Shown here piece by piece: positions 2,833 through 9,966 of a stretch of 10,653 nt of DNA. How positions within the stretch are numbered: the first letter of the stretch is position 1; the number at the start of each line of letters is the position of its first letter. Origin of the DNA: a virus (Duplodnaviria > Heunggongvirae > Uroviricota > Caudoviricetes); IMG/VR virus record IMGVR_UViG_3300036770_002544, positions 1 to 10,653 of that record; one strand, written 5' to 3'. The notes under the pieces were generated by a model. The model saw only the letters and a program-made list of their open reading frames with translations, was not told where the DNA came from and did not search any database. Position numbers and translations under genes: made by a program.

Positions 2833-3207
2833 ATGAAAGTCACTGAAGATCAGTTTCGTTTTGAATGGTTCTCCGGCACAGGCAAAGGGGGACAGCATCG
2901 CAACAAACATCAAAATTGTTGCCGCTGTATTCACGAGCCCACTGGAATCACTGCCAACGGAACCAACAGTCGCAGTCGTGAAGACAATCGTGCAGCCGCA
3001 TATACAACTTGCCGCAGCCGAGTAGAAGCACACTTTCACACAGACACTGAGCGTTATCTCGCCGGCACTGAACGTATTCGAACATATCACGAAGCTGATA
3101 ACCGTGTGGTAGATCATGCATCGGGATTGACTGATAGTTGGACCAATGTTATAATCAAAGGTGACTTTGAGCCTGTGATAACAGCTCGGGCCAAAGCAGT
3201 TAGGTAA
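2833..3207 (+). CDS. stand-alone GGQ peptidyl-tRNA hydrolase domain protein (RF-1 domain, 124 aa)
   Basis: SGTGKGGQHRNK catalytic loop, IHEPTGITA strand, and ERIRTY...NRVVDH motif of class I release factors. Track start 2785 lies inside the tRNA, so ATG 2833 is used. Confidence 0.85.
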   Translation: MKVTEDQFRFEWFSGTGKGGQHRNKHQNCCRCIHEPTGITANGTNSRSREDNRAAAYTTCRSRVEAHFHTDTERYLAGTERIRTYHEADNRVVDHASGLTDSWTNVIIKGDFEPVITARAKAVR

Positions 3208-4045: not shown

Positions 4046-4335
4046 GTTATTGCTGTATGAAGCAAAGAGAAAAGTGTTCTGGACGAGGGTTCGATTCCCT
4101 CCATCTCCACCAAAAGCATTCTATCCCCACCTGACGAGGAAGGATCAAAAGAACTAAAAAGAATGCTTCTGATGGGGATGATCTGGTTTCGACAGGGCAA
4201 AGAGTAACAGAGTGGACAGCACAAGAGCAACCTTGTAAAAAGAAGAAAATCTATAACTGCAAACGCAGCCAATGATGAGGTATTTGCCTTAGCGGCATGA
4301 TCTCTGGGGCAACTATGCCTTATTACCCAAAATAG
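4046..4335 (+). ncRNA. ssrA: circularly permuted (two-piece) tmRNA
   Basis: The acceptor piece comes first (T-arm GAGGG-TTCGATT-CCCTC, CATCTCC-A-CCA ending 4112), then an intervening segment (4113-4173). The coding piece starts GGGGATG at 4174 (G3:U70 pair) with GGTTTCGAC. The tag ORF 4259-4300 encodes ANAANDEVFALAA*. Outer ends are approximate. Confidence 0.9.
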
Positions 4336-4384: not shown

Positions 4385-4984
4385 ATGAAAAAACTTTTAA
4401 CCACACTTATCGTAGCCGCTGCTGGTGCAGCATCTGCTCAAACCGTTGACAACTGGACAGCCAGCGGCGCACCTGTGCGCAATGGTACCCAAGAACTGTG
4501 CTGGCGTGATGCTAGCTGGACTCCTGCCACTGCTCATCCCGACTGCGATGGCGCACTAAAGAAACCACGTGTTACTGCAACTGTTCCTGCACCAGTGGCG
4601 CCTGTGGCCAAACCTGCACCACAGCCTGTGGCAGTCAAGCAATCCTATGCTGCCGATGCATTTTTTGACTTTGATAAAACTGTGATCAAGCCCGAAGGCC
4701 GTGCCAAATTGAATACGTTGATTGCAAACATCAACAACATCACTCTTGAAGTTGTGATTGCTGTGGGACACACCGATTCAGTCGGCACCGACACTTACAA
4801 TCAAAAACTAGGTCAGCGTCGAGCAGATGCAGTCCGTGCTTACCTAGTAAGTCAAGGTATTGATCCAAAACGAGTATATACCGAATCCCGAGGTGAGCTA
4901 AAACCGATAGCAGATAATCGAACTGCTGTGGGCCGTGCTCGAAACCGTAGAGTAGAAATTGAAGTAATTGGTACTCGGCGTTAA
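4385..4984 (+). CDS. ompA: OmpA-family outer membrane / peptidoglycan-binding protein
   Basis: Signal peptide, N-terminal CWRDASWTPATAHPDCDG, Pro/Ala linker, and OmpA C-domain (FDFDK, GHTDSVG...YNQKLGQRRADAV, RARNRRVEI); AAGGA SD. Confidence 0.92.
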   Translation: MKKLLTTLIVAAAGAASAQTVDNWTASGAPVRNGTQELCWRDASWTPATAHPDCDGALKKPRVTATVPAPVAPVAKPAPQPVAVKQSYAADAFFDFDKTVIKPEGRAKLNTLIANINNITLEVVIAVGHTDSVGTDTYNQKLGQRRADAVRAYLVSQGIDPKRVYTESRGELKPIADNRTAVGRARNRRVEIEVIGTRR

Positions 4985-5637: not shown

Positions 5638-5643
5638 AACACT

Positions 5644-5739
5644 ATGATGCAAAACATCCTATCCGCGCTGAACAGCATACAGTCATTAAACAATGACCTC
5701 TCGGCCTATGAGCGCGAAGATCAGCGAGGTCTTTGTTAA
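5644..5739 (+). CDS. putative attenuator leader peptide (31 aa)
   Basis: MMQNILSALNSIQSLNNDLSAYEREDQRGLC*; its stop lies in the antiterminator arm. Confidence 0.45.
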   Translation: MMQNILSALNSIQSLNNDLSAYEREDQRGLC

Positions 5740-5768
5740 AGTAGTACTCAAGTGTTACCTTAACAAAG

Positions 5769-5798
5769 ACCCTGCAACAAGCAGGGTTTTTTCTTTTT
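5769..5798 (+). terminator. intrinsic terminator / attenuator 3:4 hairpin
   Basis: ACCCTGC-AACAA-GCAGGGT followed by a long U-tract. Confidence 0.85.
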
Positions 5799-5802
5799 GT
5801 AG

Positions 5803-5831
5803 TTGACGAATAATTCAAGGTTTGCTACAAT
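5803..5831 (+). promoter_or_regulatory. sigma70 promoter P1 of the RNA array
   Basis: TTGACG, 17-nt spacer, TACAAT with extended TG; AT-rich upstream. Confidence 0.8.
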
Positions 5832-5887: not shown

Positions 5888-6096
5888 TTTGCAGTGTTGT
5901 TTAGGCTGATGGGCGGCAACTCGCCAGCAGTCTGTTACTTCTCCCTGATTAGTGTAGCTTTGCCGAGCGAAATAGGACGGAGTTGATATGATGAAAACTG
6001 GTAGACATGGGGTCGATATTAGACCCTGCGGGAAACTGCGTGTGGGTTCAAGTCCCACTATCATTTAAGAAGCATCAGCCTAAACAACATTGCAAA
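5888..6096. repeat. 24-bp inverted repeat (5888-5911 / 6073-6096)
   Basis: TTTGCAGTGTTGTTTAGGCTGATG pairs with CATCAGCCTAAACAACATTGCAAA, with a single G:U. Confidence 0.9.
5982..6066 (+). pseudogene. degenerate class II (Leu-type body) tRNA-like element, loop GATATTA, no CCA
   Basis: D-arm ATG-AAAACTGGTAGA-CAT, stem GGGTC/GACCC, variable arm GCGG-GAAA-CTGC, T-arm GTGGG-TTCAAGT-CCCAC; mismatched acceptor. Confidence 0.7.
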
Positions 6097-7136: not shown

Positions 7137-7216
7137 GTGCGTTTGGTCTAAATGTTAGGGCATCATGACATGGGGCTAGAAACCTCAAGATGCGGGTTCG
7201 AATCCCGTAACGCACA
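7137..7216 (+). tRNA. atypical tRNA, apparent anticodon AGA, with an insertion between the D and anticodon arms
   Basis: Perfect GTGCGTT/AACGCAC acceptor, T-arm GCGGG-TTCGAAT-CCCGT, TGGGG-CTAGAAA-CCTCA arm; followed by CCG, not CCA. Confidence 0.6.
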
Positions 7217-7225
7217 CCGTTTTTT

Positions 7226-7401: not shown

Positions 7402-7436
7402 GGGCCTCAAAGTGTTCATGGACGCACGTAGAGCCT
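7402..7436 (+). pseudogene. tRNA 5'-half remnant ending at C32-U33
   Basis: GGCCTCA-AA-GTGT-TCATGGAC-GCAC-GT-AGAGC-CT, then unrelated sequence; no matching 3' half in the window. Confidence 0.5.
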
Positions 7437-7484
7437 ATTACCCATGTACGCCGCACATTTGATAAATAAATGTAGGAGAACAAA

Positions 7485-8093
7485 ATGTTTTACTACATGT
7501 ATCAAATCAAAAACAAAGTGAATGACAAAATTTATGTCGGAGTCCATAAAACTTCTGACATGAATGATGGTTACATGGGTTCAGGTAAAGTAATACGTGC
7601 CGCTATCAATAAGCATGGCATTGACAACTTCGAGAAGACTATTCTTGAAACTTTTGAGAGTAGCGAAGAAATGTTCAAGCGTGAAAAAGAAGTTGTAACA
7701 GAAGACTTCCTATCACGTGATGATGTGTATAATTTGCGTCGAGGCGGCTCGGGCGGTTTTGATTACCTAAACAAAACGAGACAAAACAACAAAGCCAAGC
7801 AATACCTCAAAGGCGGACAAACATACGCATCAAGATTAGAAAATGACGAAGAATTTCGCAATGCTGAGTCAGAGAGAAAATCTGCTCTAAACAGACAGCA
7901 ATACGCAAATGGTAGAGTCAGCGTATTCAAAGATTCTGTTTTACAGCAAGAACTTTCTAATAGAGCAAAGCAAGTAAATTTAGGTTCGATGTGGGTTAAC
8001 AACAATACACACGAACGCAAGATCAAAAAGACTGAACCAATCCCAGATGGTTGGGTCAAAGGAAGATTACGCACCGTTGGCGCAGTTGGTTAG
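7485..8093 (+). CDS. free-standing GIY-YIG (Seg-like) homing endonuclease
   Basis: YYMYQIKNKVNDKIYVG, DGYMGSG, catalytic-type E in KREKEV, VYNLRRGGSGG, and C-terminal MWVNN...IPDGWVKGR; AGGAG SD. Confidence 0.9.
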   Translation: MFYYMYQIKNKVNDKIYVGVHKTSDMNDGYMGSGKVIRAAINKHGIDNFEKTILETFESSEEMFKREKEVVTEDFLSRDDVYNLRRGGSGGFDYLNKTRQNNKAKQYLKGGQTYASRLENDEEFRNAESERKSALNRQQYANGRVSVFKDSVLQQELSNRAKQVNLGSMWVNNNTHERKIKKTEPIPDGWVKGRLRTVGAVG

Positions 8094-8147
8094 CGCACTT
8101 GCCTGTCACGCAAGGGGTCACCGGTTCGAGCCCGGTACGGTGCGCCA
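8071..8147 (+). tRNA. tRNA-Asp(GTC), copy 1 (overlaps the last 23 nt of the endonuclease ORF)
   Basis: GCACCGT/ACGGTGC acceptor, G73, CTTGC-CT GTC AC-GCAAG, CCA. Confidence 0.93.
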
Positions 8148-8153
8148 AGTTTA

Positions 8154-8228
8154 GGCTCGTTCATATAATGGTCATTATCCCGGATTGTCTATCCGGAGAC
8201 GGGAGTTCGATTCTCCCACGAGTCGCCA
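8154..8228 (+). tRNA. tRNA-Asp(GTC), copy 2, atypical U37
   Basis: GGCTCGT/ACGAGTC acceptor, G73, CCGGA-TT GTC TA-TCCGG, CCA. Confidence 0.9.
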
Positions 8229-8231
8229 AGT

Positions 8232-8660
8232 TTTGTTGTAGTGTTAGCAAGAGAAAGTCACGCTAGGGCGGCTTCTTCGAAGGGCCAAACTAGTAGAAGG
8301 TTACGGGTTCGATGCCCGACGGATCGGAAGATCCGGGTGCATGGTGGCGCACAGACTGGACAAGTATCCCAAGTGGCGTACCGAGTCCTGCCCGGGCTAG
8401 TGCATACAGGTGAATGGTGTCAATAACGATGGTGACACGTCTGCAACAAATCCTACGTTCTGCCTAATCAGCAGATACTGTGACCCACAGGATGAGAAGT
8501 ACAGTGATATGTACGGGTGGTAGTCTTTGAACCAAAAGGCCGCTAGCAATGCGAGAACGGTCCCGGTCGTGGAGCGGGTGGAGGGCATATTCAAATCAAA
8601 GGCAATCACCGTGGTGCCCAAGAGATGATGTGCTATAATTACCGCCGCGGGATGCAGAGC
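8232..8660 (+). ncRNA. large (~430 nt) highly structured ncRNA, GOLLD-like candidate
   Basis: GC-richer than its surroundings, with no credible ORF, many hairpins and a closing helix 8232-8240/8442-8450; flanked by tRNAs. Confidence 0.6.
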
Positions 8661-8665
8661 ATTAT

Positions 8666-8740
8666 GTCGCATTGGACTTCTGGTGAGGTCATTACCCTTT
8701 CAAGGTAACCAGACGGGATCGTAACCCGTATGCGACTCCA
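8666..8740 (+). tRNA. tRNA-Glu(TTC), copy 2, atypical T-loop
   Basis: GTCGCAT/ATGCGAC acceptor, TTACC-CT TTC AA-GGTAA, T-loop ATCGTAA, CCA. Confidence 0.85.
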
Positions 8741-8774
8741 TTGACAAACATTTTTCACAAGAGTGTTTTTCAAT

Positions 8775-8806
8775 GGGAATATAGTTTAGTGGCAAAATTC
8801 CAGCCT
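8775..8806 (+). pseudogene. tRNA 5'-half remnant (Gly-TCC-like) ending exactly at U33
   Basis: GGGAATA-TA-GTTT-AGTGGCA-AAAT-T-CCAGC-CT is a perfect canonical spacing of positions 1-33 and resembles the TAGTTTAGTGGTAAAACCTCAGCCT segment of tRNA-Gly(TCC). Confidence 0.7.
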
Positions 8807-8813
8807 ATAAATA
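8806..8813 (+). promoter_or_regulatory. T4-type late promoter
   Basis: TATAAATA, 4 nt before the radical SAM ATG; its first T is U33 of the tRNA remnant. Confidence 0.6.
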
Positions 8814-8817
8814 CCAA

Positions 8818-9879
8818 ATGAAATTATCAGATGTTAGATCTCTGGCACTAGAAGTCACTTCGCACTGCAACATTAGATGCCCGCAATGCTCAAGAATTAA
8901 TTGGGACGGGGAACTTGCTGAGTTTATTCAACTTCAGCATTGGGATATTAACAAAATATTACCAAACTTGCAGGTAGAATCAATGCCACAGTTGAGTTTT
9001 GTTCGAATCGAAGGTGACAACGGCGATGCACTCATGCATCCTGACATTGTGGAAATTGTTGAACATTTTTACAATGCTCCGACCAAACCACGAATTTTGA
9101 TATTGACCAATGGCTCGATGAGATCTGCTAAGTGGTGGAAAGAATTTGGCCAAAGATTTAGTGGCCGTTTGCGTGTGCAGTTCAGCATAGATGGTCTAGA
9201 AGACACGCATGCGTTGTACCGTGTGGGTGCAGACTATAACAAAACAATAGAAAATGCGCGAGCATTTATTGCAGGTGGTGGCGAAGCCACGCAACGATGC
9301 TTGATTTTTGATCACAACAAACACCAACTTGATGATATACGAGCAACAAGTTTAGACATAGGTTTTGTAGGATTGAGAATTACTCCTGGAGATCTGTTTA
9401 GATTCCAGGGAGAAAAAACATGGAAGGTATTCTGGAAGGGCAAAAATACACATGATATTGCCCCAATACCGAATTTTGATTTTGATTTCTCGCCGTGGGA
9501 ATACAATAAGACTGATGTACAAATGAGCCCAATACTCGGGTCTGATGAAATACACAAAGATGGGCTAAACCATCTTTGTCCTGTGTTTAATAAAAGAGAA
9601 ATTACTATTACGTACAAAGGACATTTAATACCTTGTTGTATATATCAAGCAGATTTGTATTTCATGCGGGACTTCAATGTAGATTATCAAAATTTAGTCG
9701 GAGATATGAATTTAATGAATTTAAATCTACGAACGCTACACGACATTCTCAGTGATCCGTTGTATTATGGTAATCGATGGGAAAGCATGCTGGCAAGCAA
9801 TAATAGATTTCCAAAGTGTCAAGCCACATGCGGATCACAACTAGATCGCAGAATCATACAAATTCAGGAGCGTTGCTAA
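8818..9879 (+). CDS. radical SAM protein with SPASM/twitch-like C-terminus
   Basis: CNIRCPQC (CxxxCxxC), GDNGDAL, LTNGS, FSIDGL...H..YR, and C-terminal CPV...HLIPCC...CQATC. Confidence 0.92.
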   Translation: MKLSDVRSLALEVTSHCNIRCPQCSRINWDGELAEFIQLQHWDINKILPNLQVESMPQLSFVRIEGDNGDALMHPDIVEIVEHFYNAPTKPRILILTNGSMRSAKWWKEFGQRFSGRLRVQFSIDGLEDTHALYRVGADYNKTIENARAFIAGGGEATQRCLIFDHNKHQLDDIRATSLDIGFVGLRITPGDLFRFQGEKTWKVFWKGKNTHDIAPIPNFDFDFSPWEYNKTDVQMSPILGSDEIHKDGLNHLCPVFNKREITITYKGHLIPCCIYQADLYFMRDFNVDYQNLVGDMNLMNLNLRTLHDILSDPLYYGNRWESMLASNNRFPKCQATCGSQLDRRIIQIQERC

Positions 9880-9966
9880 TATTGGCCTTAGGGCGACCCT
9901 TATAAAGTCGTAAGCACTGTCCAGATAAGGCAGTTAATGTGGGTTCGATTCCCACCGCTCCTACCA
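9866..9966 (+). tRNA. atypical tRNA-Ile(GAT) with a large D-loop insertion (overlaps the last 14 nt of the radical SAM ORF)
   Basis: AGGAGCG/CGCTCCT acceptor plus A-CCA, CTGTC-CA GAT AA-GGCAG (A33), GTGGG-TTCGATT-CCCAC; 101 nt. Confidence 0.75.

Follow-up and report, generated by a model that had tools for sequence, protein, structure and literature searches.

Two protein-coding genes of a jumbo phage, one for a SegB-like GIY-YIG nuclease and one for a radical SAM protein, end inside tRNA genes. The best reading of this arrangement, with a probability of about 0.65, is a SegB-family cassette to which a replacement tRNA is welded, accompanied by a cargo cassette of like layout. Both genes most likely arrived as cassettes made of a mobile gene and a replacement tRNA, and the overlaps would be the right-hand joints of these mobile cassettes in the tRNA array of the phage. 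Loss of the stop codons through tRNA maturation is a plausible effect that has already been proposed in the literature, and a dedicated circuit coupled to ribosome rescue is unsupported.

The DNA analysed here (10,653 nt, referred to as the window) comes from the beginning of a virus contig of 74.7 kb with an estimated completeness of 21%. It is the tRNA region of a jumbo phage, and 36 tRNA or tmRNA genes were called in the first 21 kb of the contig.

Two stop codons inside tRNA genes

The original prediction placed the stop codons of both genes inside tRNAs, and both proved to be real tRNA genes, tRNA-Asp by ARAGORN and Rfam and tRNA-Ile by Rfam. The TAG at 8091-8093 occupies nt 21-23 of tRNA-Asp(GUC) 8071-8147, two of its bases being in the D-loop and the third opening the 3' strand of the D-stem. 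The nuclease ORF (7485-8093, 202 aa) thus has its final seven codons and its stop within tRNA-Asp. In the same way, the final four codons and the stop of the radical SAM ORF lie within tRNA-Ile 9866-9966, where the TAA at 9877-9879 forms nt 12-14 of the 101-nt tRNA, in the D-arm. Recoding of TAG was considered unlikely, as ordinary genes here end in TAG.

It had further been claimed that RNase P cleavage at the tRNA 5' ends would remove the stops and send the mRNAs to tmRNA tagging or GGQ rescue. Judging from tRNA structure, cuts at 8070/8071 and 9865/9866 would indeed do so. From what is established for RNase P and tmRNA, tagging would be the expected fate wherever cutting meets translation, as the pieces 5' of the tRNA starts, which encode 195 and 349 aa, keep all conserved residues and motifs of both proteins. 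Rescue by the GGQ protein is not established, the protein being RF1-like and not ArfB. Maturation by RNase P would probably yield some non-stop transcripts that tmRNA and SmpB would tag and clear, and the cutting probably damps expression of the overlapping genes as a side effect. For the nuclease, the non-stop route may act as an extra brake beside a hairpin at the start codon, as proposed for T4 segB. This would be one-way damping with no feedback circuit, and it would depend on neither of the phage's own tmRNA and GGQ genes.

The non-stop idea has precedents. Loss of the stop by tRNA maturation was already proposed for T4 segB (PMC2330249), and Hudson et al. 2014 surveyed non-stop mRNAs that arise from CDS-tRNA overlap, citing arfA (PMC4131195). 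Both loci belong to the class covered by that survey, namely a Pfam-positive CDS overlapping a valid same-strand tRNA downstream. Literature searches returned nothing specific on phage overlaps combined with tmRNA.

The probable nuclease cassette and its tRNA-Asp alleles

The features of the nuclease locus are as follows.

7403..7436, + strand: 5' half of type A tRNA-Asp(GUC), a widespread phage tRNA, interrupted directly after U33 (allele comparison)
7437..7461, + strand: left end of the element, constant among alleles; a decayed stretch resembling a T-loop and acceptor 3' strand precedes ACATTTG at the CCA position
7462..7468, + strand: T4-type late-promoter-like ATAAATA (sequence; similar motif upstream of T4 segB)
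7470..7498, + strand: hairpin over the Shine-Dalgarno sequence and ATG of the nuclease (-9.9 kcal/mol, z -3.7)
7485..8093, + strand: SegB-family free-standing GIY-YIG homing endonuclease gene (PF01541, phrog_314, T4 segB match)
8071..8147, + strand: putative replacement tRNA-Asp(GUC) with encoded CCA, supplying TAG at nt 21-23 (ARAGORN, Rfam, covariation)
8154..8228, + strand: second tRNA-Asp(GUC), outside the cassette (ARAGORN; follows the intact type A tRNA in L148)

By homology, the nuclease is a SegB-type homing endonuclease. It shares 41.9% identity with T4 SegB over residues 1-194 (96% of the query, E 5e-45), and Y6, Y17, G19, E67 and N83 are invariant across 60 sequences. The ATAAATA motif would serve as a late promoter. 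The start hairpin is kept in five relatives (z -1.1 to -3.7), its conservation being partly forced by the coding sequence. Members of the SegB family mostly live among tRNAs, which were found near 101 of 115 distinct loci, and in 61 of the 115 at most 60 nt separate the gene start from the 3' end of a tRNA, as in T4 segB.

Conservation of the overlap in homologues had been named as a check, and it holds for the close clade of the nuclease: all 16 clusters (76-92% identity) end in tRNA-derived tails, as checked on DNA for five clusters and five further loci. It does not hold for the wider family, in which 72 of 115 loci are without a full overlap. Among relatives, the stop lies at nt 8-10, 21-23 or 22-24 of the tRNA and all three frames are used, with several different tRNA-Asp sequences, which supports the cassette reading. 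The frame runs into the tRNA because the latter starts 1-3 nt after the final conserved residue of the nuclease, and from there it continues to the first TAG, TAA or TGA in the conserved 5' motifs of the tRNA. Against the cassette reading stands the finding that none of the 16 close-clade clusters has regained a stop of its own.

In 97 distinct contexts the type A 5' half is part of an intact tRNA-Asp, and in 12 it leads into the element; L148 represents an empty allele, with an intact type A tRNA and the same downstream tRNA neighbour. The left end of the element (7437-7461), possibly the remnant of a tRNA 3' part, is near-identical in 12/12 filled alleles, whereas the 5' half varies. Filled alleles show eight anticodon-stem variants, five of them identical to variants of intact genes. 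Such a variety of stems on a near-constant element end suggests repeated homing into different recipients, and the varied recipient 5' halves would be an indirect sign that the nuclease cleaves tRNA genes and drives its own inheritance. At the other end, the replacement tRNA-Asp differs in sequence among nuclease relatives. The seven linked alleles keep 98.6% of their pairs, with two-sided changes in 14 of 21 pairs, and because the nuclease-linked alleles covary so strongly, this tRNA looks functional and under structural selection.

SegB is known to cleave tRNA genes at their 3' ends and to home with its tRNA region (PMC2330249). By analogy, the most likely target of the nuclease would be the common type A tRNA-Asp gene in the genome of a co-infecting phage. 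Repair would then join the 5' half of the recipient tRNA to the element and install the nuclease-linked tRNA-Asp, a sequence of events suggested by the observed allele pattern. Unlike the GGTTCRANTCC motif of SegB, however, the presumed target here has an atypical T-loop. A group I intron in the anticodon loop was also considered and rejected: no Rfam intron matched up to E 1, and what follows is a complete, different tRNA that does not match a 3' exon.

A tRNA-Glu at 8666-8740, with a 3' end in ...CTCCA, has the phage-type T-loop GGATCGT common to type A tRNA-Asp. As a speculation, T-loops of this type, which are without the SegB recognition motif, may represent an escape from tRNA-gene cutters.

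The radical SAM gene and its tRNA-Ile

A matching layout was found a short distance downstream.

8775..8810, + strand: 5' half of a tRNA-Ile(UAU) of a different subtype, extending as far as its anticodon loop (similar remnant in L339 and L345)
8818..9879, + strand: radical SAM/SPASM gene (PF04055, weak; PF13186; 353 aa)
9866..9966, + strand: 101-nt tRNA-Ile supplying TAA at nt 12-14 (Rfam RF00005, 41.4 bits; missed by ARAGORN)

As in the nuclease cassette, a tRNA-Ile half is followed by a gene and then by a different tRNA-Ile. The anticodon loop of the half merges into TATAAATA (8806-8813), and intact long-arm tRNA-Ile(UAU) genes with a D-arm similar to that of the remnant occur in L429-L432. 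The layout suggests a similar swap of tRNA-Ile in which the radical SAM gene travels as cargo, its mobility being read from this arrangement. No exact empty allele of the cassette was found, no mobilising enzyme is known for it, and no close radical SAM relatives were found in viral_contigs. Exact-pattern searches gave 0 matches for the start of tRNA-Ile and one unrelated match for the remnant. No family reached its cut-off in an NCBIfam search of the protein.

The downstream tRNA-Ile looks functional from its fold (z -2.9) and from the covariation of its arms in a small set of five. Two of its arms resemble an anticodon arm, and both covary: one carries a TAT loop in the canonical place, the other has 5 bp and a GAT loop. 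It can alternatively be drawn as a tRNA-Ile(GAU) with a D-loop hairpin; the L429-L432 subtype favours UAU with a long extra arm.

A tail derived from this same tRNA was found in eight radical SAM homologues (53-91% identity), one of them in another frame. Two divergent alleles (53-54%) sit on nearly identical tRNAs; this may reflect a functional link and, like the lack of a known mobilising enzyme, counts against the cassette reading. The association is looser elsewhere: the tRNA-Ile occurs alone, without the radical SAM gene, in L178, and a 57% homologue stops 17 nt before a tRNA-Cys. In L340 (3031-3131) and L341, the 5' part comes from the long tRNA-Ile and the 3' end from another tRNA, the two meeting in the T-arm, and the radical SAM stop still lies inside the chimera; such a chimeric tRNA should not be a normal RNase P substrate. 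The original prediction had named stops upstream of the tRNA in homologues, with no change in behaviour, as an observation that would refute it, and the homologues partly bear this out. T4 segB stops 5 nt before tRNA-Arg, 72 of the 115 family loci have no full overlap, no tRNA follows a radical SAM homologue of 73% identity, and a 72% homologue overlaps a chimeric tRNA in which four of seven acceptor pairs fail.

Frequency of genes running into tRNAs

In bacteria, coding sequences that enter a tRNA are rare, about 1 in 15,000 mRNAs, with 250 cases of a CDS upstream of the tRNA that include Carsonella smpB-ssrA (PMC4131195). By contrast, genes entering tRNAs are common in these phage arrays. 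When entering reading frames were followed over 2,386 phage tRNAs, 46% stopped within 25 nt and 61% within 45 nt, with a peak at nt 8-10. Once a frame has entered a tRNA, a stop inside it is thus to be expected, and one in the D-arm is nothing out of the ordinary.

When genes of these arrays that end no more than 30 nt from a tRNA were compared, overlap was observed in 48/82 nuclease groups versus 14/67 groups of other genes (p=5e-6), these groups being defined at 60% identity, hence not fully independent, and resting on heuristic ORF calls and labels. The overlapping nucleases belong to several unrelated folds. In the SegB family, overlap was present in 21/24 cases with a spacer of at most 14 nt and in 1/16 above. 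The 22 overlaps observed show no excess over the 25.9 expected from spacing, a null that was built from the tail lengths of family members far from tRNAs and that takes the short spacer as given, so that selection keeping the spacer short would escape it. Moreover, 9/10 independent elements overlap after a same-isotype half tRNA versus 18/61 after a whole tRNA (p=5e-4), and overlap therefore marks cassettes that carry their tRNA.

The cassette-like layout was found two further times in the same genome, on the contig outside the window. At 14813-15199, a PD-(D/E)XK nuclease gene extends 39 nt into tRNA-Ser(GCU), and at 14035-14415 an HNH gene lies between what looks like the 5' half of a tRNA-Ile and an intact-looking neighbour, tRNA-Ile(GAU), 1 nt ahead of which it stops.

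The tmRNA and the GGQ gene

The rescue functions invoked by the original prediction are encoded as follows.

2833..3207, + strand: truncated RF1-like GGQ protein, catalytic domain and ERIRTY segment (PF00472; 124 aa)
4051..4300, + strand: phage two-piece tmRNA (RF04321, 128.7 bits; tag ANAANDEVFALAA)

The tmRNA is real and of the two-piece type. A search with RF00023 matched only tRNAs, below the cut-off, and no SmpB was found on the contig (21% complete). The GGQ gene is also real, PF00472 scoring above its cut-off, but it encodes a fragment like release factor 1, without the codon-reading domain. Its C-terminus aligns with RF1, RF1 proteins are its best matches, and four K/R among the final 30 residues contrast with the long basic tail of ArfB, which is absent. 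ArfB identity was rejected, there being no ArfB match in NCBIfam or the PDB. PF00472 was found in 10 of 50 related contigs, and genes of this GGQ family end 0-7 nt before a tRNA without overlapping it. An OmpA-family protein with a signal-peptide-like start is encoded at 4385-4984, immediately 3' of the tmRNA.

Overlap was compared with the presence of these genes on contigs that are mostly fragmentary, which makes for a weak test. Phage tmRNA was present in 10/22 contigs with overlap versus 9/28 without (p=0.39, odds ratio 1.8), and the GGQ gene in 6/22 versus 4/28 (p=0.30, odds ratio 2.3). In near-complete relatives, tmRNA was found in 4/4, with or without a nuclease overlap, and the GGQ gene in 2/4.

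Alternative explanations

That toxic, tRNA-gene-cutting nucleases are kept stop-less by selection, with tRNA maturation leading to SsrA tagging and destruction of the complete enzyme, seems unlikely. Nucleases are enriched among the overlaps, the overlap persists over three frames and several tRNA swaps, and the predicted cut lies directly after the last conserved motif, all as this explanation would have it; SegB itself, which is hardly expressed, cleaves the genome that encodes it, and a processing event that separates the stop from the final codon has been proposed as a control. However, the overlaps do not exceed the spacing null, the 72 family loci noted above do without a full one, the start hairpin already gives possible repression, and the radical SAM gene is left unexplained. 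It is similarly doubtful that homing nucleases of unrelated folds were selected to weld their 3' ends into the replacement tRNA that they carry. If true, a single RNase P cut would both mature the rescuing tRNA and send the complete nuclease to SsrA tagging, and a self-limiting cut-and-replace element would fill an RNA gene without splicing.

Far less probable is the circuit of the original prediction, in which the phage tmRNA and the GGQ factor set both protein levels by rescue capacity, like arfA. Both genes do lie within the window, the tmRNA tag ends in LAA, and overlap is slightly commoner on contigs that have them; the odds ratios given above are not significant, so that the proposed coupling finds no significant link to either gene. 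No loop closes, because neither product acts in ribosome rescue, one being a DNA endonuclease and the other a radical SAM enzyme. In addition, the GGQ protein is not ArfB, tmRNA is present in the near-complete relatives regardless of overlap and the GGQ gene in half of them, and the chimeric tRNA of L340/L341 and the radical SAM homologues without a tRNA fit such control poorly. A modification of the overlapped tRNA-Ile(UAU) by the radical SAM enzyme, for example at the wobble U, with the overlap keeping enzyme and substrate together, is improbable. It agrees with the eight homologues that end in tRNA-Ile in two frames and with the richness of the gene in AUA (12 of 29 Ile codons). Yet L178 has the tRNA but not the enzyme, L342 and L347 have the enzyme but not the tRNA, no tRNA-modifying family is among the best 25 NCBIfam matches, and only 5 of 120 distant radical SAM relatives have any tRNA nearby.

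Relation to known systems

The nuclease locus resembles T4/T6 SegB (PMC2330249, PMC13096335, PMC2988022) as a free-standing GIY-YIG gene in a tRNA cluster. As in T4, the gene comes after a tRNA end without CCA, with a late-promoter-like motif and a start hairpin, which has been described for T4 segB (PMC2330249). Unlike here, T4 segB has its own stop ahead of tRNA-Arg and its upstream tRNA-Ile is whole, whereas the present upstream tRNA is broken, a same-isotype replacement is carried and the stop lies inside it. T4 SegF and SegG, known for intronless homing and marker exclusion (PMC2988022), are likewise free-standing nucleases that spread with an adjoining allele replacing the cut one; the replaced gene here differs in being a tRNA of which a dead 5' half remains.

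As in other CDS-t(m)RNA overlaps (PMC4131195), the coding sequence enters a same-strand tRNA whose maturation should remove the stop. Unlike the rare bacterial cases, overlaps are common for nucleases in these phage arrays and there is no self-feedback of the smpB type. In E. coli arfA, the product itself is the rescue factor (PMC3989581). There too an endonucleolytic cut leaves a non-stop mRNA and the truncated product could stay active, but the cut is made by RNase III in a stem-loop and not by RNase P at a tRNA.

The 2008 proposal for T4 segB could be tested cleanly at this locus, since its stop is internal to the tRNA and a single added stop codon would separate the hypotheses. The cassette layout would account for the presence of homing nucleases in tRNA genes that have no introns as well as for the swapping of tRNA variants in phage arrays, and bears on the escape from tRNA-cutting defences (PMC13096335). 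No description of this layout, in which a dead tRNA 5' half is followed by the nuclease and by a replacement tRNA of the same isotype, was found in the literature searched, whose coverage was incomplete.

Other features of the array

Several smaller features were observed upstream of the two cassettes. At 5642-5791, a short leader-like ORF is followed by two strong hairpins, the second of which is terminator-like, immediately ahead of the tRNA-array promoters, and this resembles an attenuator-like arrangement. A sigma-70-like promoter (5803-5831) lies ahead of a degenerate tRNA-like sequence at 5981-6067, which has a TAT loop and a long arm, is without CCA, and sits within a 24-nt inverted repeat (window 5888-6096). 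Finally, an atypical tRNA at 7137-7219 (Rfam 51 bits), to which ARAGORN gave no assignment, is kept in L001, L002 and L008.
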